A DNA stretch of 31,673 bases, taken from Pseudonocardiaceae bacterium (GTDB taxonomy: Bacteria > Actinomycetota > Actinomycetes > Mycobacteriales > Pseudonocardiaceae). The notes beneath the pieces were generated by a model. That model was not told where the DNA came from. It ran no database searches and worked only from the letters and a program-made list of their open reading frames with translations. Below, in pieces: positions 4,749-29,631 of this stretch. Location: positions 1 to 31,673 of the forward strand of contig DASYMV010000373.1 of NCBI GenBank assembly GCA_036008865.1. The letters run 5' to 3'. Numbering within the stretch: position 1 is the first letter of the stretch; the number at the start of each line of letters is the position of its first letter. The position numbers and the translations under genes are program-made.

Positions 4749-4760
4749 GTCGCGTCGCGG

Positions 4761-8854: not shown

Positions 8855-8864
8855 CGGAGCACTC

Positions 8865-9857: not shown

Positions 9858-9971
9858 CCGCCCCTCCCCTCGATGCACGTCCCCGTCGGACGTCAGCACA
9901 ACGCTAGGGCGGCGGCTCGGCGTGCGCTTGACGGGGCCTTCAGCTTCGCCGAGAGGTCGGCTTGATCGCCA

Positions 9972-9987
9972 CTGCATCGTCATGCAG
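9972..9987. promoter_or_regulatory. Inverted repeat CTGCAT-N4-ATGCAG in the crtB/crtE divergent region; possible operator
   Basis: Perfect 6-bp arms, located centrally between the two divergent start codons. Confidence 0.3.
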
Positions 9988-10055
9988 ATCGGGCCACCCG
10001 CTGGTTAGCTCGTGACCGCCGCTCCACACCCCGCGCACCAGTAGAGGAGGCGACG

Positions 10056-11186: not shown

Positions 11187-11198
11187 GGAGTTGTCCTG

Positions 11199-14346: not shown

Positions 14347-16644
14347 TCACGAGCGTTCGAGGCTGCGCAGGACGGAGACGACGTTGTGGTGCATCCACAA
14401 GGGATTCGTCGAGTACCGTTCGGACTGCGCGAGGTTGTTGGACACGTGGTGAAGCCAACTGAGGAGCACCAGCACGCGCGGCTCGACCACGTCCGCGCCC
14501 AACGCCCGTTGCGCGTCCACCAGGACCGGGTGACCGGGATGCTCCGGATCGCTCGACCACTGCTGGACGACGCGCCCCAACTCGGTGTGCGCGACCCGCC
14601 ACTCGGTGCTGACGAGCAATCCCACGACGTCCAGCACGGCGATGCCGTCCGGATCGGATTGGCACCAGTCCACGACACCGGTGACGCGCCCGTCTTCGAC
14701 CAGGACGTTGTCCGGGCAGAAGTCGCCGTGGACCCACCCGACAGAGACGCGCCGCCCGGCGAGCTCCTCCACCAGGATCGCTTCGAGCCGGTCGAGCGGG
14801 CCGCGTTCGCCATGACGCACGCAGGCGCGCAGGCGCGCGATCGGCACCCGAACCCATCGCGTCACGCTCGCCTCGTCCACGATCCGCGGAACCGCTGTGC
14901 GGTCGTGCAGGTCTTCGATCGTCCCCAGCGCCGCCGCGACGAAACTCCGCCGCCCGTCGGCGTCACCGAGCATGCTGCGGCCGTCGACACCGCGCAGCCG
15001 CGTCTCCATCACGCAGAACGCCCCGTTGACCTCACTGGTGGCGAGCACGTTCGGCAGGAGGTCACGCCACGCACCGAGTCGCCCGTCCGCGTGCAACCGT
15101 CTGAGGACGGCGGCTTGACGGACCAGTTGGTTCCGACCGGACGGGCTGTCGGCGACCTTGATCAGCGCCGTGTCGCCCTGCGCCGAACCGACCAGCGCCG
15201 TGGCGGTCCCCGACTGGCCGTGCAGGCGGCCCTGCAACCGCCAGGAGGCGAGGTCTCCTCCCATGATCCTTCCGAGGAGAACCGGAGCGGTGCGGCGGAG
15301 CAGGAACGAATGCCGGAGCCCGCTCAGCGGTCCGCTCAACGGCCGGGGCAACCAGGACGCCCGCAGGAGCAGGATCGCGCTCGCCACGATCATCTGCCCG
15401 GCCAGCAGCGCGATGCCGACGCCGTTGACCCCCACCCGCGGGGTCAGCACGACGCACAGGGTCAGCACGAGGATCGACAGGCTCGCCAGTACGGCGACGA
15501 CGACCGTCATACGGCGGCGCACCCTGGCGGCGCTCACCGTGGTGGACGTGACGATGTTGGGCAGTGCGGAGAGCGCGGCGAGCCGCAGCACCCAGGTGCC
15601 GTGCTGGGAGTAGGACTCTCCGAAGATCCTGAGCAGGTACGGAGCGGTCACGAAGATCACCACGACCGCCGGTACGAGCAGCAGCAGTGAGTACTCGACC
15701 ATGATCCGGCGGGCACGCTCCAATCCGGCGATGTCGCGCGAGGCGTGCACCACCAACGACTGCCCCATCCCGAGCGGCACGAGGTACAGCGAGTAGGCCA
15801 CGGTCCACGCGGTCGAGAACGCGGCCGTCGCCTCCGCCCCCACCACGTCGAGGACCAGCACCGGGAGCAACTGGGTGCACCCGAGCCAGAACAGCGTTCC
15901 GGTGTAGTCGCCGCCGACGTAGCGCAGCACGTGTCTCAGCGAGAACGGCTCGGCGACGTCCTGCGCGGTGACCATGTGGCTGGGCACGGCACGCCTGAAC
16001 AGGTAGACGTTCGTGACGACGACCACGATCGCCGTGGCGACGGTCCACGACACCGCGACGCCGTGGAACGGCATCGCCGCGACGAGCCACACGAGCAGCA
16101 CGATCTTCAGCCCCGAGAAGACGGCGTTCTCCACCGGAACCAGCGCGGCACGACCGACCGCGGTGAGCACGCTGTCCTGCATCACGAAGATCGTCCACAC
16201 CGCCGTCGCGGCGACGAACCACGCCGTCTCCAGCCGGCCCTCGAAGAAGCCCTCCAGCTGGGACGACCACAGCCGCGCGCCCAGGACGAAGACGTAGCCG
16301 GCGCTCGCGCCCAGCAACGCGCCCGCGGTGTAGGTGGTGATGACGAAGCCGCGGGCCCGCCGGCCGGCGACGGGCACGAACCGGAGCAGCGCGTTCATCA
16401 GGTTCAGCTGAGCGGCGCCGGCGAGGAACATCATCGCGTAGATCGCCGCGGAGTTCGTGCCCACCACCGCGGGCGGGTACAGGCGGGCGGCGATGACCCA
16501 GTACAGCAACCCGATGCCGGAGGTGATCGCAGAACTCGCCACCAGCGCGTAACCGCTGCGGTACAGGGGCTGCTGCCAGCTCGTGAGCAGGGACCGCACC
16601 GGTCTTCGGTGTTGCTGCACGGTCGACATCTCGTCAGTGGTCAC
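14347..16644 (-). CDS. Wzx/MOP-type polysaccharide flippase fused to a C-terminal APH/choline-kinase-like phosphotransferase domain, 765 aa
   Basis: About 12 hydrophobic segments beginning LYRSGYALVASSAITSGIGLLYWVIAARLY. Soluble C-terminus with ALIK, VHGDFCPDNVLV and GVVDW. GTG start at 16644 overlaps the upstream stop; the track ORF is over-extended to 16992. Confidence 0.87.
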   Translation of the reverse strand: MTTDEMSTVQQHRRPVRSLLTSWQQPLYRSGYALVASSAITSGIGLLYWVIAARLYPPAVVGTNSAAIYAMMFLAGAAQLNLMNALLRFVPVAGRRARGFVITTYTAGALLGASAGYVFVLGARLWSSQLEGFFEGRLETAWFVAATAVWTIFVMQDSVLTAVGRAALVPVENAVFSGLKIVLLVWLVAAMPFHGVAVSWTVATAIVVVVTNVYLFRRAVPSHMVTAQDVAEPFSLRHVLRYVGGDYTGTLFWLGCTQLLPVLVLDVVGAEATAAFSTAWTVAYSLYLVPLGMGQSLVVHASRDIAGLERARRIMVEYSLLLLVPAVVVIFVTAPYLLRIFGESYSQHGTWVLRLAALSALPNIVTSTTVSAARVRRRMTVVVAVLASLSILVLTLCVVLTPRVGVNGVGIALLAGQMIVASAILLLRASWLPRPLSGPLSGLRHSFLLRRTAPVLLGRIMGGDLASWRLQGRLHGQSGTATALVGSAQGDTALIKVADSPSGRNQLVRQAAVLRRLHADGRLGAWRDLLPNVLATSEVNGAFCVMETRLRGVDGRSMLGDADGRRSFVAAALGTIEDLHDRTAVPRIVDEASVTRWVRVPIARLRACVRHGERGPLDRLEAILVEELAGRRVSVGWVHGDFCPDNVLVEDGRVTGVVDWCQSDPDGIAVLDVVGLLVSTEWRVAHTELGRVVQQWSSDPEHPGHPVLVDAQRALGADVVEPRVLVLLSWLHHVSNNLAQSERYSTNPLWMHHNVVSVLRSLERS

Positions 16645-19334
16645 GGCGTTTCCCGCACGAGCTCGGCGAAGCCGCGGAGCGCGGCCGGCGCAACACCGCG
16701 CCTGCCCGCCTCCTGTGCTCCCAGCAGGGTCAGCAGCACCCTGGCGGCGGGATCGTGGCGGTTCTGCCCGCACACCGAGCAACCTCCTGGCGGGTGGCCC
16801 AGCAAGCGACCCACCGCGTGCGCGAGACCGGCCGCGTACGCGGGGCGGACGACGGTCACGGCCGACGCGCGGACACCCGCGGTGGCGTTGCCGGGCGCGT
16901 ACGCGTGGCGGGCCAGAGCGAGCATCGGCAGATCCGACTCCGTGTCGCCGACTGCGAGTTCGACCTCGCTCGGCGCCCCGCTCGGCGTGCACAGCATGGA
17001 GGCCAGCATCTCCAGGCCCGTTCCCTTGTCGGTGGCAGCCGCGACGAAGTCGGTCTGGCGCATCCCCGTGACGACGCGAACTCCGTCCTGGTCGTCACCG
17101 AGCACGCGCAGTGCCGCATCGACGATCTCCGCGGGCAGGGCTGAGGAGTGTCGCTCTCCGGTGCGCAGCGCGCGAACGCTGTACCGGTAGTCGTCGTTGA
17201 TCGACACCCCCGGCACGGCGCGCAACACCTCCCGCAGCTCGTCCAGCAGCAGCCGTTCGTGCTCGGTCACCAGCTCCACCACGCGACCGGTCGCGTGCTC
17301 GTAGGCGACCGCGCCGTACTCGGCCACGCCCCCCGCGAGACCGAACGCGGTGCAGCGGTCCTGCACTTCCGGAAGACTGCGCCCGGTCACGGGAACGGGG
17401 CGGTAGCCGTGGCGTTCGAGCGAGCGCAGCGCGAGTGCGGCCACCGGGGTGATGATCGAGAATCCGAGGGCGTCGGACTCCAGGACGCCGTCGATGTCGA
17501 GGGCGCACAGCATCGGTGATCCGGGCGTCCCCTCGAGATCGGGCACCGGTCCGGCCGGGAAGCGCCCGGCCATGTAGCGCTGCACCGCCCTCGACGCCGC
17601 CCTGCGAGCACCGTGGTCGGTGCTCGGCCGCGACGCCAGGTGCACCAGTTCGTAGAGCAGGAAGCGTTCGTCGGAGCACCGGTATGCCGCCCGCAGCGCG
17701 CGCACGAACCCGGTGTCGTGGCTGCCCGGATCGATCCCCGCGAGGTCGAAGACGGGGTCGTAGCAGTACAGGTCCGTGTTGGCGAAGCCGCGCAGGTCCG
17801 CGTTGTCCTTGACCAGCCGCCCCGCCCCGCGCAGCCAGTTCTCCAGGCCCGTGGCACCGTCCACGACGGATGGACGGTCGACCGAGCACAAGCGGCGCAC
17901 CAACAAGTCGAGCATCAGCGGGCGCAGCAGCACGCCGCCCCGCCCGTACCCCCCGGCGAGAATCTGACCTGCCACTTCCCACACGGGTTGCCTGCCGCCG
18001 AGCAGACGGCTGCGGTCCTCGACGGCGGGCAGCGCCGCCGCCCGGTCCTCGACGTAGCTCACGAACGCGGGCACGTCGCACGTGCTCGGGACGTGCACGG
18101 GCGTCAGTTCGGGTGACCACTCGCGGAAGGTGAGCCCGTCCCGGAAGCCGTAGGTCTTCGGCACGTGAGCGGACAGCGCGTCGGCGACGGCGATCGCGTG
18201 ACGGCCGAGGTACCCCAGTCCCGTTCCGGTGACGACGACCGTGCGGATCCGCTCGTCGGCCCACTGGACGCGGTAGATCGCGCGCACGTGGGAGCGATCT
18301 CCGTCCCTCCGGATCGACGGAACCGGCTCCACCCGCACGACGGGCACGTCGAGCAGCGACGACAAGGCGGAACCGACCGCCTCCGGTGCCAGCCGTCGGT
18401 GCACCTCCCACTGGTCGAAGGGCAGCTCCACGCGATTGCACGTCTCGAGGACCGGCGACGGTGCGCCGAACACGGGCAGCAACAGGGTGATCGCTTCCGC
18501 CGCGGCGCCGTGCCGGGTCAGCAGGTCGACACCCGCGAGCACGGAGGACCCCGTCACCGGTGGGTCGTCCACGACGGCCGCCGCGGCGCCGTCGCGCAGT
18601 CGCGCGCGCAGGACCCGCGCGTCCTCGTGCCACAGTGACCGGCGTGGCCGCATGGTCAGCGACGTCACGTCGCGGTGACCGGCACCTTCGAGCGCCGCGG
18701 CGATCAGCGGCGCGAGGTAGCTGCCCGAGGTCCGCACACCCAGCACGAGCACCGGGCGGCTGCGGTCGGGCAGCCGTCTGGAGTACTCCTGCGCAAGGCG
18801 CACCATGTCCTCGGGTTGCTGGTCGAAGCTGCGGAAGCAGTTGGGCAGGCGCAGCACGTCGTCCCCGGCCCGCGGCGGATGCTCGGGAAGTTCTGCGCGC
18901 ACCTGGCGTGCGATCACGAGCACGTGCCGGTGCGAGGCCGGGTGGTGCCGGCCGGTGACCACGGCGCGCGCCAACGCGTCGCGGACGGTCCTCATCGCGT
19001 CACGCCGCCGGGCGCTGGAGATCTCCGCGGACCGCAGGCTCCGCGCGTGCTCCACCGCATTCGCGAGGCCGCGCAACACCCGGCTGACGACTTGCGGCTG
19101 ACCTTGTTCCGACAGGTACTTCGCGCCCCGGCGCAGCGACAGGGTGTCGCGCTCGAGCCCGTCCTCCATCACCTGCACCGCGCCCGCGGCGAGCAGGAAG
19201 GCGTCCAGGACGTCGCCCGAGACGAGCCGATCGATCAGCATGTCCACGAGCTCGCGCAGGCCGCACAGCAGGTCGCCGACGATCAGTTCATCGGTCCGGC
19301 CGGTCTTCACTCCGTTGCGGACGAGGTCGGTCAT
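16641..19334 (-). CDS. Multidomain protein: type I phosphoribosyltransferase-like + kinase-like + HAD-IIB phosphatase, 897 aa
   Basis: PRTase-like VLVLGVRTSGSYLAP and AVVDDPPVTGSS. APH-like VVDG..LENW..LVKD..DPVFDLAG. Complete HAD motifs DIDGVL, TGRS, DKG and GDTESD. Confidence 0.85.
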   Translation of the reverse strand: MTDLVRNGVKTGRTDELIVGDLLCGLRELVDMLIDRLVSGDVLDAFLLAAGAVQVMEDGLERDTLSLRRGAKYLSEQGQPQVVSRVLRGLANAVEHARSLRSAEISSARRRDAMRTVRDALARAVVTGRHHPASHRHVLVIARQVRAELPEHPPRAGDDVLRLPNCFRSFDQQPEDMVRLAQEYSRRLPDRSRPVLVLGVRTSGSYLAPLIAAALEGAGHRDVTSLTMRPRRSLWHEDARVLRARLRDGAAAAVVDDPPVTGSSVLAGVDLLTRHGAAAEAITLLLPVFGAPSPVLETCNRVELPFDQWEVHRRLAPEAVGSALSSLLDVPVVRVEPVPSIRRDGDRSHVRAIYRVQWADERIRTVVVTGTGLGYLGRHAIAVADALSAHVPKTYGFRDGLTFREWSPELTPVHVPSTCDVPAFVSYVEDRAAALPAVEDRSRLLGGRQPVWEVAGQILAGGYGRGGVLLRPLMLDLLVRRLCSVDRPSVVDGATGLENWLRGAGRLVKDNADLRGFANTDLYCYDPVFDLAGIDPGSHDTGFVRALRAAYRCSDERFLLYELVHLASRPSTDHGARRAASRAVQRYMAGRFPAGPVPDLEGTPGSPMLCALDIDGVLESDALGFSIITPVAALALRSLERHGYRPVPVTGRSLPEVQDRCTAFGLAGGVAEYGAVAYEHATGRVVELVTEHERLLLDELREVLRAVPGVSINDDYRYSVRALRTGERHSSALPAEIVDAALRVLGDDQDGVRVVTGMRQTDFVAAATDKGTGLEMLASMLCTPSGAPSEVELAVGDTESDLPMLALARHAYAPGNATAGVRASAVTVVRPAYAAGLAHAVGRLLGHPPGGCSVCGQNRHDPAARVLLTLLGAQEAGRRGVAPAALRGFAELVRETP

Positions 19335-19515
19335 CGGACCACCGCCCGCCCAGCAGCCTGCGGACCCACGAGTGGCCGCGGTATCGGGTGCATCGGCCGG
19401 CCGGGCACATCGAGCACTCCGAACCTCGCCGGTAGTGCAGGTGCGCCCCCTTGGGGTGTGCGCAGAGACGGCAGGCGTCGCCGACGGCCCGCTTGGTGCT
19501 CCCGCTCGTTGTCAC
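19288..19515 (-). CDS. Cys/His-rich putative metal-binding microprotein, 75 aa
   Basis: CRLCAHPKGAHLHYRRGSECSMCPAGRCTRY; strongly GC3-biased codons across the motif; AGGGA upstream of GTG. Overlaps the next gene by 47 nt. Confidence 0.6.
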   Translation of the reverse strand: MTTSGSTKRAVGDACRLCAHPKGAHLHYRRGSECSMCPAGRCTRYRGHSWVRRLLGGRWSDDRPRPQRSEDRPDR

Positions 19516-19591
19516 ACACCGTCCCTGAGTCGTGCCGCTCCGGGGTGCCGGGGACGAGCCCTGGCCCGCGATCCACCGCCCCGTTCGTCAT
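19331..19591 (-). CDS. Alternative-frame ORF (86 aa, no recognisable motif) with ATGA overlaps at both ends
   Basis: Starts in the stop of 19588..19794 and ends in the start of 16641..19334. Only the first ~30 codons look GC3-biased. Confidence 0.25.
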   Translation of the reverse strand: MTNGAVDRGPGLVPGTPERHDSGTVCDNEREHQAGRRRRLPSLRTPQGGAPALPARFGVLDVPGRPMHPIPRPLVGPQAAGRAVVR

Positions 19592-19794
19592 CGTGCCACC
19601 ACCTCGGCAGCGACACGAGCGCCAGCGGCCGTGATCAGCAGGACCGACAGCACGCCGGACAGCCAGTCCAGTCTGCCGACGAGCGGAGGGTCCACCCCGT
19701 CCGCGCGTTCAGCGAGAACCGTGCGGACGCTCACGGCCGCCAGCAGTGCGATGGCGGCCACCACCACCGACCAGACCAGGACGTGCTTCATCAT
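19588..19794 (-). CDS. Small two-helix membrane protein, 68 aa
   Basis: Two hydrophobic stretches (VLVWSVVVAAIALLAAVSV; LDWLSGVLSVLLITAAGA); in-operon position. Confidence 0.7.
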   Translation of the reverse strand: MMKHVLVWSVVVAAIALLAAVSVRTVLAERADGVDPPLVGRLDWLSGVLSVLLITAAGARVAAEVVAR

Positions 19795-19808
19795 GTGCTC
19801 ACTTTCAT
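19791..19808 (-). other. 5-codon mini-ORF (MKVST) bridging two genes by ATGA overlaps
   Basis: ATG at 19808 overlaps the stop of 19805..21625; its TGA overlaps the ATG at 19794. Confidence 0.25.
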
Positions 19809-21625
19809 CGGGTGCCGGCCGCGGTGAACGAGTGCTCGTTCGCCAGCAGGACGCTGCCGTCCTGCTCGAACACCACGCGGTAGCTGCCGGAGGCGGTCAG
19901 CTGCCGCACGAGGGAGTTCGTCCAGCCGGGAGGCAGGTCGTCGAAGATCCGGCCGTAGTTCTCCTGCGAAGGAGTCACCAGCAGGTACGTGGGCGCGTGG
20001 TCCTTCACGCAGCGCAGTGCCTCCGCGAGCGCGGGACAGCCGACGCTGACCGACGTCAGCGACTCCTGCCGCACCTGCCCCACCTGAGCGGACAGCAGCG
20101 GCGTGTACTCGACCAGCACGTCGATCGACTGGCCGGCACCCGCGATCTGGTGCGCCTTCCCCGCTGCCATCAGATCCGCCCGGCTCATGCTCGTGTAGGC
20201 GTCGTTGCCGCCACGTGCGACGACGGTGGCCGAGGCGAGGGCGAGCAGGACCAGCCAGGCGCATGCCGCGGCCACGACGTGGTGCGAGTGGTTGCGCGCG
20301 CGACGGGAGGCCATCCGGTCGGCCGCCGCCCCCATCGCCACACCGCCGAGCAGGACCAGGCCCGGCAGGGCGAACAGGTAACAGCGGAAGAGGATCTCCC
20401 CGCCGTAGGGCTGGAGCACGATCATCGCGAACGGGATGAGCGAGAGCATGGCCAGCGACAGGTTCTTCACGCCCCGGTGGCGCAGCACGCACCACCCCGC
20501 CACCGCGAGCGCGAACACCGTCGCGGTGATCGAGGCGCGGACACCCAGGATCACCAAACGCCCGGTCTCGCCCACCACCCGGTCCGTCACCCCCTTGGCA
20601 GAGGAGCCGACGTCACCGAGCCCGTTGATGATGATGCTGAGCTGGCCGAGCCAGAAGTCCCGTGCTCCCAGCGCGAACCACACCACCGCGGCGGCCAGCA
20701 CGAGCACCGGGAGCCACGGCGTCCACAAGCGGCCGACGATCAGCAGCGCGAACAGCAGGGCCGCCAGCAGGAACGGGGTCAGCTGGTGCGACGGCGCCAG
20801 TGCGAGTGCGATCAGCACGACCAGGGCCTGGGCGAGCAACCGGTCACGCGGTGGGTGAAGCGGCGGCAGGCGGCGGCTCGGATGCGCGGGAGACGGGTCC
20901 GCCAGGCCCGGTCGCACCAGGTAACGCACCACGAGCGCGAGTGCGGCGAGGAACAGCACGTACGTGACGGCCTGGGGTGAGAAGTAGTCCTGCTCGGTCC
21001 ACTCGGCGAACACGAACAGCCAGGTGGCGAGCCAGCCCGCGCGCCCGTCGCCGAGGACGGTGGCGGCGAGCGCGCGCACGCCCAGCGTCGCCAGGGCGGC
21101 GATCACCACGGGCGTCCACCGCAGCAGTTCGGCGGGGTCGGGCGACCCCGAAGCCCGCTCCACGAAGGCGAACAACGAGAAGAACCCCGGCCAGGAGAAC
21201 CGCGCGTCGTAGCCGATCAGCGCGTGTCCGTGCTGGGCGATGTAGTCGGTGAAGCCCTGGTGCAGCCAACTCACCGGCAGGCGAGCGATCTGCTGGCTGG
21301 CCGGCTGCAGACCGTAGACGCCCCCGACACCCAAGGCGGTGAGGGCGGCGAGCAGTCCAGGCCTCGGGGCCGTGCGGAGCAGCTCGACCGCCATCGCACC
21401 GACCAGCATCGGGTAGGAGGCCAGCAGAACCGGGGAGAGCTCCGGCGCGAGCCCGTAGCTCCCCATCTGCGTGGGCGGCACCTGGCGCAGGCCCGCGAAC
21501 CACACGGCCGTGGCGGCCAGCGCGAGAACTGGAGTGATCACGGCCGAGACGTGACGAGGGCTGCGCCGCACGGGGCCAGGTGCCGCCACCACCGGATCGC
21601 GGCGAGCCACCGCGGACGCGGTCAC
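19805..21625 (-). CDS. Polytopic membrane protein, GT-C glycosyltransferase / Wzy-like polymerase candidate, 606 aa
   Basis: Many TM segments, with loop motifs YDARFSWPGFF and WTEQDYFSPQA and a soluble C-terminal domain. GTGA overlap at the start. The exact family is not determinable by eye. Confidence 0.75.
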   Translation of the reverse strand: MTASAVARRDPVVAAPGPVRRSPRHVSAVITPVLALAATAVWFAGLRQVPPTQMGSYGLAPELSPVLLASYPMLVGAMAVELLRTAPRPGLLAALTALGVGGVYGLQPASQQIARLPVSWLHQGFTDYIAQHGHALIGYDARFSWPGFFSLFAFVERASGSPDPAELLRWTPVVIAALATLGVRALAATVLGDGRAGWLATWLFVFAEWTEQDYFSPQAVTYVLFLAALALVVRYLVRPGLADPSPAHPSRRLPPLHPPRDRLLAQALVVLIALALAPSHQLTPFLLAALLFALLIVGRLWTPWLPVLVLAAAVVWFALGARDFWLGQLSIIINGLGDVGSSAKGVTDRVVGETGRLVILGVRASITATVFALAVAGWCVLRHRGVKNLSLAMLSLIPFAMIVLQPYGGEILFRCYLFALPGLVLLGGVAMGAAADRMASRRARNHSHHVVAAACAWLVLLALASATVVARGGNDAYTSMSRADLMAAGKAHQIAGAGQSIDVLVEYTPLLSAQVGQVRQESLTSVSVGCPALAEALRCVKDHAPTYLLVTPSQENYGRIFDDLPPGWTNSLVRQLTASGSYRVVFEQDGSVLLANEHSFTAAGTR

Positions 21626-21993
21626 CTCGTGCTCTCCTCGACGCTCTCCTCGATCCGGCGCACGAGATGGTGCACGAGCGGCACCACCGTCAGCGCGCAC
21701 ACCAGCAGCAACGCACCGACCGGGTGCCACTGACCGGTGGTGACCATGATCTGCGCGATGATGATCCCCACTGACCCGCCCACCGCCGCGGACACCGACC
21801 AGACCAGCGACGGGCTGTCCATCCGCAGGTAGTTCGCGATCGCCCATCCCGGCGCGAACAGGACGAAGAGCAACGTCAACAGCAGCCGGAAGCCTCCGCG
21901 CACGTCGAGGACCGCGCATGCCCCGGTGAGGACCGTCAGCACCAGGAGGGCCGTCGCGGTGATCCGCACCTGTCGTGATCGCACGCCGATCAC
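21622..21993 (-). CDS. Small four-helix membrane protein of the glycan operon, 123 aa
   Basis: Hydrophobic, LLFVLFAPGWAI motif; GTGA overlaps at both ends. Confidence 0.8.
   Translation of the reverse strand: MIGVRSRQVRITATALLVLTVLTGACAVLDVRGGFRLLLTLLFVLFAPGWAIANYLRMDSPSLVWSVSAAVGGSVGIIIAQIMVTTGQWHPVGALLLVCALTVVPLVHHLVRRIEESVEESTR
21631..21654. repeat. 12-bp tandem duplication (GCTCTCCTCGAC/GCTCTCCTCGAT)
   Basis: Seen directly. Encodes the IEESVEES tail and duplicates the GAGGAG SD-like element for the next gene. Confidence 0.6.
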
Positions 21994-24041
21994 CTCCTGC
22001 TGTTCCGGAACGAACGCCCGAGGGCCCGTGGTGCTTCGGCGACACCGCGCAACTGCTCGAAGACCAGTCGGCGAGGTGTTCGGCGCGAAGGAGCCCGATT
22101 CGGCTCACGCGAGGACAGCGTGCTGAGGAACCCGGCCGGTACGGCGGCCGCGATCTGCACGGCGTCGCCCGGCCGCCGCAGAACGTGTCGCAGGTACATG
22201 GCGGTGAGACCGGTGGCGTAGGCACGCAGTTTCGCGCGCAGGTCGGCCAACTCCGCCTCGTGCTCGTGCCACGCGACCGCGTCGGGCGCGTAGACGACCG
22301 TGCCACCGGAGCGCACCAGTCGCAGGAAGAGTTCGAGGTCCTCGGCGCCGCGGCACGGCGTGCCCGGTCCCAGCAACGGGTCGAACCCGTCGAGGCGGAC
22401 CAGGGCGCTTCTCCGCCACAGCGCGCATCCCCCGGGGCCGAAGCGGCCCGGTCTGGTCCACGCCGTGCGGTCTTCGGGGCCCCACCGCTGCAGGACGACT
22501 CCCTGACCGAACCCCTTGAGCTGTTCGAACACCAGCTGTGCCGGAGTCTCCAGAGCGACCGGCAGCACGAGGCTGGTCGCGCAGTCGACGCGAGGGTCGG
22601 CCAGTTCCGCCACGAGGTTGTGCAACCACCAGTGGTCGACCTCGATGTCGTCGTCGACGAAGCCCACCAAGGCGCCGTTCGCCGTGCGCCACCCGAGGTT
22701 GCGAGCGCGGCTCACGCCGGGCACCGGCTCGATGAGCACGCGCACCCTCGCATCGTCCGCGGCGAGGGCTTGGAGCGCCCGCACGCTCGGCGTGGTCGGC
22801 CGGTTGTCGACGACGAGCACCTGCAGCCGCGGATATCCGGTGTCGAGCAACGACTTCACGCACTTCGCCACCGACTCACCCCGGTCGGCCGTGGGCACCA
22901 CGATGCTGACCGGTGGCGTCCATGTGCCGGACCGGCCGGTGTCCGCACCCGAACGGTCCACGTCGGACAGGTCGACCACTCCGTGCACCACCGGGCGGCG
23001 CAGCACGTCACGGGTGCGCCTGCCGTCCCTGACGAGCACCTGCGCGGTCCGGTACGACTCGGGCACGACCACGTGCTCCGGGCCGCGGCGCACGTCCCAC
23101 TCGAGCACCCGCACCGCCTCGCCCGGCGGGGCAGCGGGTGCGGCCGTCCGGCCGATCGCGTATCCCGCCGCAGCACAACCGACCGACAGGGCGATGGCCG
23201 CGGCTGCTCGGGGCTTCCGAGGCAACTCCCGCAGGACGGCGCCGGGCAGGACGCGCCGGACGTAGTCGCGTTCGGACTCCAGGGCATCGGCCTGACCGAC
23301 CATCGACGAGATCAGCGCTTTGGAGCGGCCCTCGGCCCAGCTCCGGCGTGCCAGGTAGGCCCACGACGTGCGTTCGGGGGGAACGTGGTGGTCGACCGTC
23401 GCGGCCGGCTCGAACACGATCCGTCCGCCGTCGAAGGCGCGCCGCGCCCGGATGCACAGCTCGGTCTCCTCACAACCGAGCGGTGTCGTACCGACACGGC
23501 CCACCGTCTCGGCGAACCCGCCGACGCGGTCGAACACGGCGCGCCGGAAGGACATGTTGCAACCCATGAGGTTTCGCACGTCCGCGCGGTGCCGCGGCAG
23601 TCCGGTGTAGGAGCAGCCCACGACCCAGTCGAGCTCGCCGGGCAGGACGGCCGGGCGTCCACCCGACGCCCATCGCGGCCGCGCCGAGCCACCGACCGCG
23701 AGCACACGCGGATCGGCGTAGGGCTCGAGCAGCCGTTGCAGCCAGTCCTGCCCGGCGGTCGCGTCGTCGTCCAGGAACGCCACGACCTCGCCGTGCGAGG
23801 CCCGCAGGCCGGTGTTGCGTGCCGCCGACAGCCCTCGCACGCCACGGTTGCGCAACACCTCGACGCCGGTGAACACCCTTTCCAGGCGCTCGGCCAGCAC
23901 CGGTTCGTGGTCGACGACCACCACGACCTGGTCCGGGCGCACTGTCTGGACCAGGACGGATTCGACGGCGCGCAGCAGCTCACGCCATCTCCGCTGGGTG
24001 TAGGCGCACACCACCACGGTGACACTGGAGGTGACCGTCAC
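21990..24041 (-). CDS. Tandem GT2-GT2 glycosyltransferase, 683 aa
   Basis: Two GT-A domains: VVVCAYT..GLSAARN..AFLDDDA..GCEETELCIR and VSIVVPT..GVSRARN..GFVDDDI..GAEDLELFLR. Confidence 0.92.
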   Translation of the reverse strand: MTVTSSVTVVVCAYTQRRWRELLRAVESVLVQTVRPDQVVVVVDHEPVLAERLERVFTGVEVLRNRGVRGLSAARNTGLRASHGEVVAFLDDDATAGQDWLQRLLEPYADPRVLAVGGSARPRWASGGRPAVLPGELDWVVGCSYTGLPRHRADVRNLMGCNMSFRRAVFDRVGGFAETVGRVGTTPLGCEETELCIRARRAFDGGRIVFEPAATVDHHVPPERTSWAYLARRSWAEGRSKALISSMVGQADALESERDYVRRVLPGAVLRELPRKPRAAAAIALSVGCAAAGYAIGRTAAPAAPPGEAVRVLEWDVRRGPEHVVVPESYRTAQVLVRDGRRTRDVLRRPVVHGVVDLSDVDRSGADTGRSGTWTPPVSIVVPTADRGESVAKCVKSLLDTGYPRLQVLVVDNRPTTPSVRALQALAADDARVRVLIEPVPGVSRARNLGWRTANGALVGFVDDDIEVDHWWLHNLVAELADPRVDCATSLVLPVALETPAQLVFEQLKGFGQGVVLQRWGPEDRTAWTRPGRFGPGGCALWRRSALVRLDGFDPLLGPGTPCRGAEDLELFLRLVRSGGTVVYAPDAVAWHEHEAELADLRAKLRAYATGLTAMYLRHVLRRPGDAVQIAAAVPAGFLSTLSSREPNRAPSRRTPRRLVFEQLRGVAEAPRALGRSFRNSRR

Positions 24042-24895
24042 GTGGCACCCGCGCTCGTCAGGCCTTCTTCGTCACCGGGGCTCTCGACCGGCAACCGGGA
24101 CATCAGCGGCAACGCCGTCGCGACGGTGGCACCCGTCTTCCACACCGGAATCCTGGTGCGCCGGGAAGTGGCCCGCCGACGCTCGGCGAGGATCGTGCGC
24201 AGCACCCTCATCCCGTCGGAGACGGCGTTCAGATGGCTGTCGCCGTACCTGCGCAGCCGTTCCACGCTGGGGACCTCGGTGATGCGCAAGCCGGCCGCCG
24301 CCGCGCGGCAGTTGATGAGCGTCTCGACCTCGAAGCCGTCGCCCCAGACCATCTCCCCCGCGGGCACGGGCAGGTGCAGCGCGGGGAGGCCGAGTTGTGG
24401 GACCACGTCGCGCCAGAAGGCGTTGTAGCCGTAGCAGAGATCGGTGAAGTGGGTGTCGAACAGGACGTTGGTGAGACCGTTCAGCAGCGCGTTGCCCAAG
24501 TGCCGCAATGCGGTGATGTCCTCGCTGCCGCCGTCGCGGCAGAACCGCGTGCCCTTGGCGAAGTCGGCACCGTCCACCAGCACCTCGACGAATCGGGCGA
24601 TCTCAGCGGGGTCGGCCGATCCGTCGGCGTCCAGCATGACGATCACGTCACCGGTGGCCTCCGCGAAGCCGCAGGCGAGCGCGTTGCCCTTGCCGATGCG
24701 GGTCTGGTCGAGTGTCCGGATGTCCGGTCTGGCCCGTCTTGCGACGGCGACGGTGTCGTCGACGGAGTGTCCGTCGACCAAGATCACCTCGTGCAGGTAC
24801 GGCAGTTCACCCAGCACGAACTCGAGGTTGCGCGCCTCGTTGCGGGCGGGGATCACGACCGACACCGAGGGATTCCGGGTGCGCCTCATGGGCAT
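24038..24895 (-). CDS. GT2 glycosyltransferase, DPM1-like (polyprenol-phosphate glycosyltransferase candidate), about 285 aa
   Basis: VSVVIPARNEARNL, VDGHSVDDT, GKGNAL, MLDADGSADP, DLCYGYNAF and GFEVET. AGGAG SD before ATG 24895 (ATG 24889 is an alternative). Confidence 0.92.
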   Translation of the reverse strand: MPMRRTRNPSVSVVIPARNEARNLEFVLGELPYLHEVILVDGHSVDDTVAVARRARPDIRTLDQTRIGKGNALACGFAEATGDVIVMLDADGSADPAEIARFVEVLVDGADFAKGTRFCRDGGSEDITALRHLGNALLNGLTNVLFDTHFTDLCYGYNAFWRDVVPQLGLPALHLPVPAGEMVWGDGFEVETLINCRAAAAGLRITEVPSVERLRRYGDSHLNAVSDGMRVLRTILAERRRATSRRTRIPVWKTGATVATALPLMSRLPVESPGDEEGLTSAGAT

Positions 24896-24949
24896 CGCAC
24901 TCCTCGGCTTGCGGATGGCGGTGGCAGTGGCGGGAGATCCGCACCCGGC

Positions 24950-25200
24950 CAAGCTTTCCGCGAGAACGATCCCCAGGTCATCAACAGAATTGTGGAAATC
25001 GTCAGGCAAGCAAACACCTGCAGTGTTCAACGCGGTACTCAGATGAACCGTTTTCACCACGTAACCGCACGTCAACATGCTCCCGATGACTACACGGCAC
25101 TGATCGCACACACCGTGACACCAATTTTCAAGACCAGGTCAAGCGAGTTGAAAAAATAGCCATGACAGTAACGAAAGAATGATTCTTCCGGATGTTCCAA
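24950..25200. promoter_or_regulatory. AT-rich divergent control region between the glycan operon and the two-component system, containing inverted repeats
   Basis: Visibly AT-richer than the flanks. TTTTCAA-N16-TTGAAAA at 25125-25154 and AAGAA-N3-TTCTT at 25175-25187. Confidence 0.5.
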
Positions 25201-25309
25201 ATGGATCCCGTGCTCGTGCGCGGGCGCAGCCAGGCCGACAAGGGCGGAGCCACCGGCCCGGACGCCCCGCTGTGCGGGCGCAGACGCACGACCAGTGTGG
25301 AGGCCGCCC

Positions 25310-26755
25310 ATGGCTGGATTCCCGTACCCCGGTCCGTCGCCCCGCGTCGACGCCGCGACGAACGCTGTCCTGGTGGTCGGTGCCGCGTGCGCCGTGACCA
25401 CTCTGTTCGCCGCGTCGCTCGGCCACGGCTTCGGGCCGGGCCACGCGTACCTGCTCCTGATGCTCACAGCGGCAGGCGTGACCGTCGGCACCGCCGTCGT
25501 CGCGGAGTTCACCGTACGACTCGCCGACGACCTCGTTCTGGCCAGAATCGGCGCGGCCGCAGGCGTCTACGGCCTCTCCGTGATCCCCGTGGACGCGCTG
25601 TCCCCACCGCCCGGCGGGGCGTTGACGCTGCACGCCGCGAGCGGGGTGGACGCAGGAGGCGTGATGGCCCTGCTCGCCCTCGCCGTCATGGCGTGCGTGC
25701 GTGACCGCGCCGGGACGCGGCGCACGTCACGGGTGTGGCCCGCAACGCTGCTCGTGCTGGCCTTGCTGGCCGTGACGACGCTGGTGCTGGTGAGCACGAG
25801 CGCGCTCACCGGCATCGTCGTCGACCGCCTCGATCACGGCGTGCTCGCGACTGACTGGGCGGCCGCGGCCGCGGTGCTGGTGACGACAGGCCTGCTGACC
25901 CGCCGCCCCCTCGTGTGGCAGACCGGCTGCGGTATCGCGCTGATCGCGTTGGCGCACACGGCCTTCCACGAGATCCCCGCCTCGTCGCGAGAACTGATGT
26001 TCGCCGCCCTGCAGTTGCTGGGCGCCGTGGTGGTGCTGGGCGCCGTCGTGGCACGGGCACGCACCGCGCTGGTTCAGCACCGGATCCAGCTCGTCGCCGA
26101 CGAATGCCGACTGCGGGCCACCGAGTCGGCCGTGCAGAGCGCGGCCGAGCGCGAACACGAGATCCGCAACGGGCTCGCGGGCGTCGCCAGCGCCGCATCG
26201 CTGCTGGCGGCGGGCACACCGGGCGTGGAGCAGGTCGACAGGGCCGAACTCGCCGCGGCGTTGCAGGCCGAGCTGCTGCGCATGCACATGCTGCTCGACG
26301 GTGCGCAGGCCGGCGCGGAGCCTTCCGAGAGCCTGCTCGAACCGGTGCTGCGGCGTCTGATCGTGCTGCGCCGCGCCGCGGGCGCACAGGTCGACCTGAC
26401 GGTCGAGCCCGGCCTGCGCATCCCCGCGCCCGCCCTGGTGCTCGCGCAGGTGATGACGAACCTGCTCGCCAACTGCGATCGGCACGCGCCGGGCGCGCCC
26501 GTGCACGTCAGCGCGCGGCAGCGGGGCGACGTCGTCCGGCTCGTGGTGCGCGACGAGGGCCCTGGCATCCCACCCGGCGCCGAGCTCACCGTGCTCGAGC
26601 GCGGCGTGCACGACCCGGCCGGTGCGGGGAGCGGGCTCGGTCTGCACGTGTGTGCCGCGCTCGCAGAGGAGCACGGGGGTGATCTGCGGCTGGTGCCGCG
26701 CTCCGGTGATCGGCCGGGCTGCACCGTGGTGCTCGAGCTGCCCGCGAGGAAGTGA
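25310..26755 (+). CDS. Membrane-bound sensor histidine kinase, 481 aa
   Basis: GGAGG SD; multi-TM N-terminus; H-box REHEIRNGL; HATPase boxes NLLANCDRHA, DEGPGIP and GSGLGL. Confidence 0.9.
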   Translation: MAGFPYPGPSPRVDAATNAVLVVGAACAVTTLFAASLGHGFGPGHAYLLLMLTAAGVTVGTAVVAEFTVRLADDLVLARIGAAAGVYGLSVIPVDALSPPPGGALTLHAASGVDAGGVMALLALAVMACVRDRAGTRRTSRVWPATLLVLALLAVTTLVLVSTSALTGIVVDRLDHGVLATDWAAAAAVLVTTGLLTRRPLVWQTGCGIALIALAHTAFHEIPASSRELMFAALQLLGAVVVLGAVVARARTALVQHRIQLVADECRLRATESAVQSAAEREHEIRNGLAGVASAASLLAAGTPGVEQVDRAELAAALQAELLRMHMLLDGAQAGAEPSESLLEPVLRRLIVLRRAAGAQVDLTVEPGLRIPAPALVLAQVMTNLLANCDRHAPGAPVHVSARQRGDVVRLVVRDEGPGIPPGAELTVLERGVHDPAGAGSGLGLHVCAALAEEHGGDLRLVPRSGDRPGCTVVLELPARK

Positions 26756-26759
26756 GCGG

Positions 26760-27446
26760 ATGTCGCGAGCCACCGTGCTGATCGTGGACGATCACGACCT
26801 GATCGGGTTGTCGCTGCAAGTGCTGCTGCGCTCGCACGGCGTGGAGACCGCCCGGTGCGGGGTGGACGAGAAGTCGGTGCTGCAGACGGCGTACGAGCGC
26901 GACCCGGGGCTCGCGCTGGTCGACCTCGACCTCGGTCCGCGTCCCGACGGTGAGCGGTACCGGGGAGCGGAGCTGATCCCCGGACTCCGCAACGCCGGTT
27001 GGCCGGTGCTCGTGTTCACCGGAACCGCGGACGGGCACCGGGCCGCGCTCTCGGACGCGATCGCAGCCGGCGCACTGGGGTGGTTGTCCAAGTCGCTGCC
27101 GGCGCAGGAGGTGGTGCACGAGATCCTCGCGGCGATGAACGGCAAGACCATGATGAGTGCCGACGAGCGCTACGAGCTGATGGAGGAGCGTCGCGGGGCA
27201 CAGCTGCGCGACCACGCGACGCGAGAGCTGCTCGACCGGCTCACCGCACGTGAACAACTCGTGCTCGATCGCCTGATCGCGGGCAGGCGCGCCTCCGCGA
27301 TAGCGCGGGAGTTCTCGGTGTCGATGAGCACCGTGCGCACTCAGATCCACGCGATTCTCGCCAAGCTGAACGTGCGGTCGCAGTTGGAGGCGGTGGCGCT
27401 GGTGCGCGCCCTGCGCACAAATCACCGGGACGGTCGAAGGCCGTGA
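26760..27446 (+). CDS. NarL/LuxR-family response regulator, 228 aa
   Basis: Receiver motifs IVDDH, LVDLDL, VFTG and LSKS; HTH LTAREQLVL..TVRTQIHAILAKLNVRSQLEAVA. Confidence 0.93.
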   Translation: MSRATVLIVDDHDLIGLSLQVLLRSHGVETARCGVDEKSVLQTAYERDPGLALVDLDLGPRPDGERYRGAELIPGLRNAGWPVLVFTGTADGHRAALSDAIAAGALGWLSKSLPAQEVVHEILAAMNGKTMMSADERYELMEERRGAQLRDHATRELLDRLTAREQLVLDRLIAGRRASAIAREFSVSMSTVRTQIHAILAKLNVRSQLEAVALVRALRTNHRDGRRP

Positions 27447-27480
27447 CGGCCGGGGCTCGTGGGAGAACGCAGGACTGCGA

Positions 27481-28752
27481 TCAGGTCCGGTCCGGAACGC
27501 TGACGCCGTACGGCGGCAGCACCTCGTCGGTTCCGGGCGGCGTTTTCCCGCGATCGGTCAGGTTGACCCACATCGTGCCACCGGATGAGACGAAGCCCAG
27601 CAGGCCGTTCTCCCGCGTGATGCGCACATTGTGCTGTCCCAGCACGCGACACAACCACGCCCACGGTGCGGCGAGCGATGTCGGCTGCACCGCACCGGCG
27701 TCCGGAGACGTCCACAACGCCGAGTACCGGAAGTCCTCGCTCGCCTGCGGCTGCCAGAGCAGCATGCGCGCGGCGCCTCCTTCGGCCATCCGCGCCACCG
27801 CGTCGAGCGTGACGGCCGTCTGCCGCGCACCGCCCGCCGACTGCTCCGTGCCTCTGTCGGGGTAGAACTCCGCCCACCACACCGGCAGGCCGGTCTCCGC
27901 GGCGACCCAGCGGGTGACCGCCGTGAACATCGCGGTCGCGGTGAACGGGTCGGTCGTCAGCCCGCGGTCCTTCGTGGCGGTGGACCCGTCCACCACGACG
28001 AAGTCCGCACCGTGCTTGTGCCCGTTCCAGTAGGTGATCACGTCGGTGGTGCGTCCGTCCACCATGCCCCACGGCCCCGTCAAGGGGGAGCGCTTGACAT
28101 TGCCGGCCATGCCCGACCAGGTGTCCATGACGACGTACGGGCCACCGATCTTGGCGTCCGGCCGCACCGCCTTCACCGCGTCGTGGACGGCGTTGTAGAG
28201 GTCGGTGTAGGCGGCCGCGTCCCACCGCTGCCGGTCCTCGTCCCAGAAACCCTTGAGCTCGCTCCACACCTGGAAGTAGCGCACCTTCGGATACCGCTGC
28301 GCCACCGCGGCCGCGAGATCGGCGAAGTCGCCGAAGTGATCACGTGACGGTGCGGCGTTGATGCGGCTCCAGTCGGTCTTCCCGCGCTCGCCCCCCTTCA
28401 TCCAGTCCGGTGCCCCGGCGAGGGTGATCACGGGCGTGCCCTGCGTGCGCTCGATGAGCGCCATCCGCCTGTCCAGAGAGGACCAGTTGTAGTCGCCGGG
28501 CGACGGTTCGGGGTTGTCCGCCCCCCACCCCATGATGTTCTGGTTCTGCACCTGCGGTGCCGCCGAGAGCACCTTCTCCCCCGATGCCACCCTGGACGGC
28601 GGGTTCCACGGATCGAGGCTGAACTGCGTGTGCGTCACGCCCAGGACCGGGATGGTCACCGGATCCTCGGCGGATCTGGCCGAGTTGCAGGACACCAGCA
28701 GCACCACGGCGAGCAGGGCGGCCACCGCGGCACGAATTCGCCGGCGGGTCAC
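27481..28752 (-). CDS. GH39-like (clan GH-A) glycoside hydrolase lipoprotein, 423 aa
   Basis: Lipoprotein signal TRRRIRAAVAALLAVVLLVS-C; QNQNIMGWGADNPEPSPG; APDWMKGG; FQVWSELKGFW; WWAEFY. GTGA overlap with the deacetylase. Confidence 0.78.
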   Translation of the reverse strand: MTRRRIRAAVAALLAVVLLVSCNSARSAEDPVTIPVLGVTHTQFSLDPWNPPSRVASGEKVLSAAPQVQNQNIMGWGADNPEPSPGDYNWSSLDRRMALIERTQGTPVITLAGAPDWMKGGERGKTDWSRINAAPSRDHFGDFADLAAAVAQRYPKVRYFQVWSELKGFWDEDRQRWDAAAYTDLYNAVHDAVKAVRPDAKIGGPYVVMDTWSGMAGNVKRSPLTGPWGMVDGRTTDVITYWNGHKHGADFVVVDGSTATKDRGLTTDPFTATAMFTAVTRWVAAETGLPVWWAEFYPDRGTEQSAGGARQTAVTLDAVARMAEGGAARMLLWQPQASEDFRYSALWTSPDAGAVQPTSLAAPWAWLCRVLGQHNVRITRENGLLGFVSSGGTMWVNLTDRGKTPPGTDEVLPPYGVSVPDRT

Positions 28753-29522
28753 GGGAGGAACCAGGCCTGCATGCGGGGTTCGCCGTGGCGCAGTGCGTCG
28801 GAGAGAGATCGTCCGACCAGTCCCCTGGCGCTCACCGCGGTGAGGACCTCCGAGACGAGCGCTCCGCGGTCGAACCGCGGCGGTGGACCGTCGTCCGCGC
28901 CCTCCTCCGCACCTGCGAAACCGTCGTGCGCCAACAGGACGGAGCCCGGTCCGGCACCGCGCACGGCGAGATCGGCGAGCCGGTGCACCGGTGCGTCGAT
29001 CCAGTCCCCCGCCACCGCGGTCCACAGCACGGATTCCATGCCCTCCCGTCTGATCGCACTCCACACGCGCGGCGACTGCGCGCCGTAAGGCGGCCGGAAC
29101 CACCGGATCGGTTGTTGCACCAGGTCTTCCAGTCGTCGCTTGCCCTCGGCGAGACTGCGAACGCGTTCGGTGTGCGGAATCCTGGTGAGCCTGCGGTGGT
29201 CCACGCCGTGCAACGCGATCTCATGCCCGGCCGCGATCGTCTCGGCGAGCAGGGTCCGGTGGCGCTCGGCCCGTCCCACCAGGACGAAGAAGGTCGCGGT
29301 GGCCCGGCGCTGCGCGAGCGCGGCGAGCACCCGCTCGGTCGCCCCCGGTTCAGGCCCGTCGTCCAGCGTCAGCACGAAATGCGGTGCCGTGGTGCGCACG
29401 CCCACCACGGACCCGACCCTCGCGGTGAACGGGAGAACGGGATCCACCAGGAAGCGCCGGACGGGTGACCTGACCCCGATCCGGTTCAGTTCCTCAGCAG
29501 TGCGAGTTGGTTCTTCGGCCAC
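28749..29522 (-). CDS. Polysaccharide deacetylase (CE4/NodB homology), about 257 aa
   Basis: TLDDGP, ATFF, HGVDH, RPPYG, DW and LAHDG motifs are all present. Start chosen from the GAGGT SD; start uncertain. Confidence 0.88.
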   Translation of the reverse strand: MAEEPTRTAEELNRIGVRSPVRRFLVDPVLPFTARVGSVVGVRTTAPHFVLTLDDGPEPGATERVLAALAQRRATATFFVLVGRAERHRTLLAETIAAGHEIALHGVDHRRLTRIPHTERVRSLAEGKRRLEDLVQQPIRWFRPPYGAQSPRVWSAIRREGMESVLWTAVAGDWIDAPVHRLADLAVRGAGPGSVLLAHDGFAGAEEGADDGPPPRFDRGALVSEVLTAVSARGLVGRSLSDALRHGEPRMQAWFLP

Positions 29523-29631
29523 GGATCGACCTCGTCTCCGCCGCAACACCGGCCAATCTTCAGACTACGTATCCCCCGGCACCGGCAACAGCACGCGTAG
29601 CGTGAACCCGTGACGGAGCGAAGCAGCGCCC

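Follow-up and report, generated by a model that had tools for sequence, protein, structure and literature searches.

Which pathway is encoded by an operon that combines glycosyltransferase genes with a kinase-bearing flippase, a large membrane protein and a phosphoribosyltransferase (PRTase)-like protein is the question raised by a locus of a Pseudonocardiaceae bacterium (assembly GCA_036008865.1, contig DASYMV010000373.1). The contig was analysed over its full length of 31,673 nucleotides, hereafter the window, and the operon lies on its minus strand at positions 14347-24895, with a gene for a carbohydrate esterase family 4 (CE4) protein nearby. With a probability of roughly 65%, the operon and the CE4 gene encode one multi-component transmembrane glycosylation system that resembles the Gtr, Gac, Arn and Agl systems, and not a pathway of the Wzx/Wzy or Pel/poly-N-acetylglucosamine (PNAG) type. 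This reading is carried by the co-conservation of the core genes, their natural fusions, the GT-C fold modelled for the large membrane protein and the cytoplasmic location of the CE4 protein.

Gene content of the locus

Genes were identified by Pfam and NCBIfam scans of the open reading frames (ORFs) of the window, which has a G+C content of approximately 70%, and reading frames were selected by codon-position GC. Every gene listed in a preliminary description of this DNA was recovered where that description had placed it. The operon and its immediate neighbours comprise the following features:

A: 24038-24895, minus strand (ORF open up to 25111); glycosyltransferase family 2 (GT2) protein, PF00535 1.4e-22
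B: 21990-24041, minus strand; GT2-GT2 protein with two PF00535 stretches
c: 21622-21993, minus strand; 123-residue protein with four transmembrane (TM) segments
D: 19805-21625, minus strand; large polytopic membrane protein of 606 residues, GT-C fold by model
E: 19588-19794, minus strand; 68-residue protein with two TM segments, recognised by coding-like codon-position GC and two hydrophobic segments
x: 19288-19515, minus strand; possible 75-residue CxxC...CxxC microprotein between E and F
F: 16641-19334, minus strand; soluble 897-residue protein with a helical bundle, a type I PRTase-like domain, an alpha/beta domain, a HAD-IIB domain and a C-terminal HxxGxCxxC motif
G: 14347-16644, minus strand; 765-residue protein in which a MOP/Wzx-like part (approximately 12 TM segments) is fused to a C-terminal APH-type kinase
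HK: 25295-26755, plus strand; histidine kinase, HATPase_c 1.1e-18
RR: 26760-27446, plus strand; LuxR/NarL-type response regulator, Response_reg and GerE matches
CE4: 28749-29549, minus strand; CE4 protein, PF01522 7.9e-27
GH39: 27481-28752, minus strand; GH39-like lipoprotein, phmmer 3e-8 to the GH39 xylosidase 4ekj

The operon is transcribed in the order A, B, c, D, E, a disputed stretch (19288-19591), F and G. Neighbouring genes overlap by 4 nt at A/B, B/c, c/D and CE4/GH39, the last through a GTG start of the GH39 gene that overlaps the TGA stop of CE4 (GTGA). D begins with a GTG inside the stop codon of c, with GAGGAG upstream, and the likely start of A is the ATG at 24895, which also follows a GAGGAG. 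An AT-richer gap of approximately 400 bp separates the operon from the divergent, plus-strand HK/RR pair, in which the ATG of RR lies 5 nt past the stop of HK. The CE4/GH39 pair in turn converges on HK/RR, placing the two-component genes between the two halves of the cluster. In agreement with the preliminary description, Pfam scans of all long ORFs in the window found no nucleotide-sugar enzyme, phosphoglycosyltransferase or LCP protein.

Co-conservation and fusion of the core genes

Considering that F is the most distinctive protein of the cluster, it was chosen as the anchor for a conservation search. Its homologs fall into at least 420 clusters with 35-56% identity, annotated as HAD hydrolases and nothing else, and are distributed over Pseudonocardia, Amycolatopsis, Streptosporangiaceae, Chloroflexota, Dormibacterota, Gaiellales, Solirubrobacterales and Acidimicrobiia. 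When one genome was scanned for each species, relatives turned up in at least 204 species, which belong to soil Actinomycetota, Chloroflexota and Dormibacterota. Of 24 genomes sampled within the family of the window, two have a full-length F, which none of 400 other genomes drawn evenly across Actinomycetota has (E 1e-40); the system is thus rare within any one group. F relatives were also seen in metagenome-assembled genomes labelled Candidatus Micrarchaeaceae archaeon and Terriglobia (L057 and L068), which could be cases of gene transfer or mis-binning.

The six-frame ORFs of 80 F-anchored loci with 10-kb flanks were then searched by profile for five core classes, namely GT2, CE4, APH kinase, flippase and D. 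Of the 52 loci whose flanks reach 8 kb or more to either side of F (full-flank loci), 44 contain GT2, 41 CE4, 40 APH kinase, 38 D, 37 flippase and 27 c, and at least four of the five core classes occurred together in 40. As an abundant background family, SDR was detected in 6 of the 80 loci by a plain tblastn search (E 1e-5) that involved no profile iteration. Genes of the same kinds recur, differently ordered, in five annotated neighbourhoods that represent four classes, and the order is shuffled among Actinomycetota, Chloroflexota and Dormibacterota.

In addition, the core genes are repeatedly fused. Flippase and kinase are joined, as in G, in 31 ORFs across the 80 loci, and the two GT2 domains, here termed B1 and B2, in 13 ORFs. 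B1 is fused to D in at least 16 related loci, and kinase, B1 and D are combined in Nocardia and Rhodococcus. One open frame of 1661 residues in a Nocardia sp. (L065:17639-22621) unites flippase, kinase, B1 and D, two Acidimicrobiia loci (L079 and L083) have open frames of approximately 1400 residues that join flippase, kinase and D, and c and D share one open frame in two loci. Flippase-F proteins of 1368 residues also exist (P0117, P0099 and P0107), under the JGI name 'O-antigen/teichoic acid export membrane protein', so that both the kinase and F are each fused to the flippase in some lineages. The very long frames, with flippase-kinase-B1-D, flippase-kinase-D or flippase-F, would each yield one polypeptide whose active sites face both sides of the membrane.

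The shuffled order together with the frequent fusions indicates one pathway, and the core genes form one co-conserved unit. The preliminary proposal that these genes, CE4 included, belong together is therefore sustained by the conservation search. By the same evidence, the notion that the locus merely brings together chance neighbours, or parts of several unrelated pathways, is extremely unlikely: F does stand without core partners in 5 of the 52 full-flank loci, and the wide conservation of the other genes does not extend to HK/RR and GH39, but a core set that recurs in shuffled order in several phyla and has undergone multiple independent fusions already contradicts chance adjacency for the core genes; for HK/RR and GH39 it may hold.

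One further gene of these neighbourhoods, encoding a FemAB-like Acetyltransf_6 protein, recurs in L015, L018 and L019 (Amycolatopsis, Gaiellaceae and Solirubrobacteraceae) and is absent from the window; once CE4 has freed an amine, this protein might re-acylate or aminoacylate it.

The membrane protein D and its small partners

By sequence, D has no match in Pfam, NCBIfam or a PDB profile search. A model based on 28 orthologs, with a predicted local distance difference test (pLDDT) score of 87.8 and a predicted template modelling (pTM) score of 0.90, was compared with solved structures and aligned best with AglB (3waj; Z 23.7 over 429 residues). Further matches include STT3B (Z 20.7), ALG12 (20.2), ArnT (18.5), AftA (18.0) and PglB (17.1), with Pmt within Z 17-21 and AftD also among them. 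The top 20 matches, with Z above 9, are all GT-C folds, the next one falls below Z 7, and no Wzy-type polymerase or O-antigen ligase is found among these 20. The Atlas clusters to which D itself belongs are unannotated, and the next nearest ones correspond to the PMT_2, STT3 and ArnT families. Invariant motifs of the D family are WPGFF, QDYFSPQ, SHQLTP and YGGExxFR. By its modelled fold, D is a GT-C glycosyltransferase of an unnamed family. Of the 'GT-C/Wzy-like' character originally proposed for this protein, the first half agrees with the AglB and ArnT matches and the second does not stand, a role of D as Wzy polymerase being ruled out by the GT-C fold matches.

The small protein c, with four TM helices and a conserved R..F..PG motif, occurs in 33 of the 80 related loci, mostly adjoining D. 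A model of the c-D complex reached an ipSAE interface score of 0.89, compared with 0.01 for the best control; three runs share at least 98% of contacts, and the pLDDT of the partner is at least 85. In the calibration of this tool, its mark was reached by 58 of 80 solved complexes and by 2 of 110 mismatched pairs. The complex model supports, and does not show, binding of c to the membrane core of D, and c is accordingly best described as a predicted membrane subunit of the GT-C protein. A GtrA- or SMR-type flippase was also considered for c and set aside: Pfam offered no support for it and returned a faint DUF1616 match, and c is predicted to bind D instead.

E has no homolog in the 80 related loci and is specific to this lineage. 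For x, the closest relative (L020) has an ORF of 48% identity in the corresponding place, and phmmer matches were obtained in four loci, with L023, L026 and L031 among the loci matched. A competing 86-residue linker ORF (19331-19591), ATGA-coupled at both ends, overlaps x, and codon-position GC does not decide between the two.

Glycosyltransferases A and B

The nearest solved relatives of A, matched by its catalytic half, are the dolichol-phosphate mannose synthase (DPMS) of P. furiosus (5mlz, 7e-13), ArnC (1.5e-6 to 9e-6) and GtrB, and among NCBIfam models it matches AglJ (TIGR04182, 2e-30) below the cut-off. These similarities suggest that A is likely to be a soluble DPMS/ArnC/GtrB/AglJ-like GT2 protein and a putative polyprenyl-phosphate sugar synthase. 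The N-terminal half of B (B1) is AglG-like (NF041394, 5e-77, also below the NCBIfam cut-off), and its C-terminal half (B2) is MftF/NodC-like (TIGR03965, 5e-59), with weak NodC/PgaC-like matches as well. The absence of a phosphoglycosyltransferase from the window and from the clusters of five annotated relatives fits a monophosphate-linked donor.

The kinship of A and B1 with AglJ and AglG, together with AglB as the best structural match of D and a C-terminal globular domain of D that weakly resembles the soluble domains of AglB, STT3 and PglB (Z 5.7-6.1), invites the explanation that the locus carries out archaeal Agl-type protein glycosylation, in which AglJ/AglG-like GT2 proteins build a lipid-linked oligosaccharide and an oligosaccharyltransferase (OST)-like GT-C enzyme transfers it en bloc. 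We consider this unlikely. The NCBIfam scores are far under the equivalog cut-offs, the WWDYG motif is absent from both the translation and the conserved columns of D, and GT-C enzymes of many specificities score nearly as high as AglB in the structure comparison, as the values for ArnT and AftA illustrate.

The flippase-kinase G

The C-terminal part of G matches PF01636 (3e-15; 57.1 bits against a cut-off of 23.2) and retains HGDFCPDN and VVDW motifs, by which it is classified as a canonical APH kinase domain. The membrane part can be called Wzx-like by transitivity only, through its orthologs: 6 of 20 match Polysacc_synt (PF01943), the best at 1.7e-5.

CE4 and the lineage-specific neighbours

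CE4 scores 94 bits with PF01522 and matches the NodB model TIGR04243 (5e-30), and its metal-site motifs LDDG, HGVDH (HxxxH) and RPPYG are intact, assigning it by sequence to carbohydrate esterase family 4 as a NodB/ArnD-type de-N-acetylase. It has no signal or TM segment, as is the case in 55 of 57 orthologs, which places its action in the cytoplasm, like that of ArnD and NodB. CE4 is a core member of the system.

The adjoining GH39-like protein, translationally coupled to CE4 and equipped with an LLVSC lipobox, aligns with the xylosidase 4ekj over 219 residues and reaches PslG at an E value of 0.005; its GH39 Pfam score is 24.5 bits against a cut-off of 26. It is confined to the window and three Amycolatopsis loci (55% identity), always directly after CE4, and is absent from 77 of the 80 loci. 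HK has approximately seven TM segments and no large external domain. Both HK and RR have homologs close to the cluster in Actinomycetospora (38% and 43% identity) and in Amycolatopsis, and nowhere else among the 80 loci, and a response regulator of any kind occurs within 10 kb in 15 of the 80, mostly in Pseudonocardiaceae, a frequency that we estimate to be near chance for NarL-type regulators, which are abundant in large actinomycete genomes. HK/RR was thus rejected as a general regulator of the system, and its position between the cluster halves suggests a link in this lineage only. GH39 and HK/RR are lineage-specific additions in Pseudonocardiaceae that lie outside the conserved system; the adjacency of the HK/RR and CE4-GH39 pairs, from which the preliminary description had concluded that the system has its own regulator and hydrolase, is real, while membership of HK/RR and GH39 in the conserved system is not upheld.

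These observations bear on the explanation from which the locus was first approached, a secreted biofilm or spore polysaccharide of Wzx/Wzy type or similar to Pel and PNAG, with D as the polymerase and CE4 and GH39 tailoring the polymer outside the cell. It draws on the Wzx-like domain of G, on the adjoining CE4 and PslG-related GH39 genes and on the weak NodC/PgaC-like matches of B2, and yet it must be regarded as very unlikely. D is a GT-C protein by fold, CE4 is cytoplasmic and GH39 is missing from nearly all related loci. Furthermore, Pfam scans of the window ORFs and of five annotated clusters found no phosphoglycosyltransferase, Wzy or chain-length regulator, and no export pore is present in the window or its relatives. 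For the Wzx-dependent biofilm, spore or cell-wall glycan first proposed, a Wzx/Wzy polymer pathway therefore gives way to a system in which a lipid-monophosphate donor is used by a GT-C enzyme, and the analogy of CE4 with the Pel and PNAG deacetylases is a misfit.

Protein F

F was modelled with a pLDDT of 87.9 and a pTM of 0.89. Residues 605-850 form a HAD-IIB (Cof-type) phosphatase domain, as indicated by the structural match to 1wr8 (Z 24.6 over 222 residues), by PF08282 (Hydrolase_3, 1.4e-9) and by the invariant residues D613, D615, K770, D797 and D801 in the motif DxDG...GDxxxD. Residues 165-330 have a type I PRTase fold (PyrR, Z 12.7; HP1257, Z 12.4; UPRT, Z 12.3) with a phosphoribosyl pyrophosphate (PRPP) loop that contains vicinal acidic residues: D256, D257, P258 and P259 (the DDPP loop) are invariant in 30 F homologs, as is GxRTSGxY. 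The Pfam Pribosyltran match of this region is under its cut-off (19.3 against 26.3 bits). A PRPP-linked step, raised as a possibility in the preliminary description, is made plausible by this fold, the invariant DD loop and the HAD-IIB domain.

Between these two parts lies a conserved alpha/beta domain of approximately 280 residues, which had previously been taken for a kinase. This assignment could not be confirmed. A comparison with the APH profile of the cluster by hhalign gave a probability of 0.1%, no Pfam family is matched by more than 1 of 24 members, no PDB profile match falls below E 0.6, and a language-model (Atlas) feature score of 0.92 is the sole pointer to APH. Whole-model fold searches of F are filled by matches to the HAD domain and hence silent on the fold of the middle domain. 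Stand-alone proteins of 480-650 residues in the AlphaFold database (A0A537J204, A0A7V9CLN5 and A0A4U1HUM1) match the first approximately 590 residues of F and have no HAD domain, from which the helical, PRTase-like and middle parts appear to be an evolutionary module.

The combination of a PRTase-like domain with a HAD phosphatase in glycan synthesis has been described for gPRT-PRP and CriT/CrpP (PMC11127046, PMC10299916). As in those enzymes, F places a PRTase-like alpha/beta core beside a helical bundle and a HAD phosphatase within one protein of a glycan cluster. Unlike CriT (H. influenzae Bcs3), F keeps the classical vicinal DD motif, and unlike both gPRT-PRP and CriT/CrpP it contains the additional conserved domain of approximately 280 residues and a HAD domain of subclass IIB. 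Neither Bcs3 nor the T. composti enzyme was matched by F in PDB sequence and profile searches or appeared among the top 50 structural rows; what F shares with these enzymes is architecture, without detectable homology.

The features of F have nevertheless to be weighed against a further explanation, in which the locus is a three-component system for a pentofuranose. F would use PRPP to make polyprenyl-phosphate ribofuranose and so be the soluble equivalent of the UbiA-type polyprenyl-phosphoribose synthase/phosphatase; after flipping by the MOP domain, D would place ribose or an epimer on a glycan made with the aid of the GT2 proteins. The PRTase fold with its intact PRPP loop, the HAD phosphatase, the flippase-F fusions and the presence of AftA and AftD among the structural matches of D speak for it, and the C. 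youngae system offers a precedent with the same set of synthase-phosphatase, MOP-superfamily flippase and GT-C protein (PMC11127046). Still, we give it little credence, since D is fused to the GT2 domain B1 and not to F, no epimerase genes are present, and the equally conserved three GT2 domains, CE4 and kinase would be left unexplained. Moreover, we know of no type I PRTase that acts on a lipid phosphate.

Proposed mechanism and points against it

The analysis establishes gene content, coupling within the operon, co-conservation, fusions, the D and F folds and the place of CE4 in the cytoplasm. For the transmembrane glycosylation system favoured here, we infer the following substrates, order of steps and acceptor. 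In the cytoplasm, polyprenyl monophosphate would receive a hexose or N-acetylhexosamine from A, B would lengthen this with its two GT2 domains to a short lipid-linked glycan, and CE4 would strip an N-acetyl group, as ArnD and NodB do. Final decorations may then come from the APH kinase on the tail of the flippase and from F, as phosphate and possibly as ribose-5-phosphate from PRPP followed by dephosphorylation. The product would be flipped across the membrane by the Wzx-like MOP domain and transferred by D, together with its 4-TM partner c, to an acceptor on the outside; candidates for it are wall polymers, lipoglycans and proteins. In the lineage of the window, control of the genes probably lies with the membrane-embedded NarL-type two-component system, and the secreted GH39 lipoprotein may trim or turn over the product.

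A bolder version, speculative and on balance doubtful, would specify the product as a partly de-N-acetylated, phosphorylated and ribosylated oligosaccharide for which polyprenyl monophosphate serves as the carrier and which a new OST-like complex of GT-C and 4-TM proteins transfers en bloc to proteins of the surface or polymers of the wall. F would then represent a third independent architecture of PRPP-dependent glycan ribosyltransferase, and the whole an unrecognised terrabacterial pathway.

Several points weigh against the proposed system. GT-C enzymes usually carry an acidic residue in the first external loop; D has no invariant Asp or Glu in residues 79-112, which form this loop, and its invariant acidic residues are D181 (in QDYFSPQ) and E378 (in YGGExxFR). 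A has no TM segment, as is also the case for human DPM1, whereas GtrB, ArnC and archaeal DPMS carry C-terminal TM helices. The membrane part of G gives no Pfam match even at E 10, and the middle domain of F shows no detectable kinship with kinases. With regard to the conservation data, co-occurrence was counted in loci selected by F, many of them from related organisms, so that the counts overstate independence, and stop-to-stop six-frame ORFs could artificially fuse a few neighbouring genes.

Other genes in the window

The remaining long ORFs of the window encode, according to Pfam, an IcmF-like mutase, an MFS-like fragment, a pyrimidine dimer glycosylase, carotenoid genes, an SDR protein, DUF2795, an LpdA-like protein and a signal peptidase. 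The IcmF-like protein (1-2676, minus strand) fuses B12-binding, MeaB GTPase and methylmalonyl-CoA mutase-type parts and runs off the left end. A carotenoid cluster occupies positions 3612-12701, with a lycopene cyclase domain, a methyltransferase, two amine-oxidase-type desaturases, a Rieske/DUF5914 protein, phytoene synthase and geranylgeranyl pyrophosphate synthase; it adjoins the pyrimidine dimer DNA glycosylase gene (3801-5111, minus strand).

Comparison with known systems

The preliminary description had considered the locus apparently uncharacterised and unlike the Pel, PNAG, cellulose and teichoic acid layouts. No description of this cluster was found in full-text searches of the literature, the second judgement holds, and a PADLOC search with eight cluster proteins returned no match to a known anti-phage defence system. 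In the Psl, Pel and PNAG systems, PslG belongs to GH39, and PelA and PgaB to CE4. The window shares with them a CE4 gene and a PslG-related GH39 gene (E 0.005) next to glycosyltransferases, and differs in having no synthase or Pel/Pga scaffold genes, in the cytoplasmic location of CE4 and in the lack of GH39 from most related clusters.

N-glycosylation in Haloferax volcanii proceeds through AglJ, AglG, the AglR flippase, AglS and AglB. The best NCBIfam matches of A and B1 and the best structural match of D come from this pathway, and assembly of the glycan on a monophosphate-linked lipid would be a further common feature. In contrast, the scores here are far below the equivalog level, D has no WWDYG motif, and the carriers are bacterial.

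The Arn pathway, which places aminoarabinose on lipid A, consists of the GT2 protein ArnC, the CE4 deformylase ArnD, ArnE/F and the GT-C protein ArnT. An ArnC-like GT2 protein, a cytoplasmic CE4 protein expected to act before flipping and an ArnT-like fold of D (Z 18.5) are similar in the present locus. Unlike the Arn pathway, it has no ArnA/ArnB sugar-nucleotide genes, its flippase is of MOP rather than SMR type, its carriers are monoderm and without lipid A, and it includes additional GT2 domains, a kinase and F.

Multi-component transmembrane glycosylation systems are represented by GtrB/GtrA/Gtr(type) of enterobacterial O antigens (for Gtr, see PMC11127046), CsbB/GtcA/YfhO of Bacillus and Listeria, and GacI/GacJ/GacK/GacL of Streptococcus pyogenes. 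They have in common with the present cluster a DPMS-like GT2 protein, a flippase (of Wzx type in Gac), a small membrane partner and a GT-C transferase, together with the absence of a phosphoglycosyltransferase and a donor that is made inside and used outside. Here, however, two extra GT2 domains, a cytoplasmic CE4 protein, an APH kinase on the flippase and a PRTase-like/HAD enzyme are added, the predicted contact of the small partner is with the GT-C protein and not with the GT2 protein, and D belongs to no named GT-C family.

The logic of making a glycan inside, flipping it and attaching it outside with a GT-C enzyme is known, and this gene set is new. It comprises a GT-C protein of an unnamed family together with its dedicated 4-TM partner, a kinase-bearing flippase, a cytoplasmic deacetylase and a PRTase-like/HAD enzyme without a characterised relative. 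Natural fusions, up to flippase-kinase-GT2-GT-C in one frame, map which of the enzymes cooperate, and cultivable carriers, such as Amycolatopsis orientalis DSM 43388, Pseudonocardia asaccharolytica DSM 44247, Streptomyces levis JCM 6924 and Rhodococcus chondri, make the pathway testable. Such efforts could reveal a new envelope glycoconjugate and a new enzymology of PRPP-derived or phosphorylated sugar decorations.

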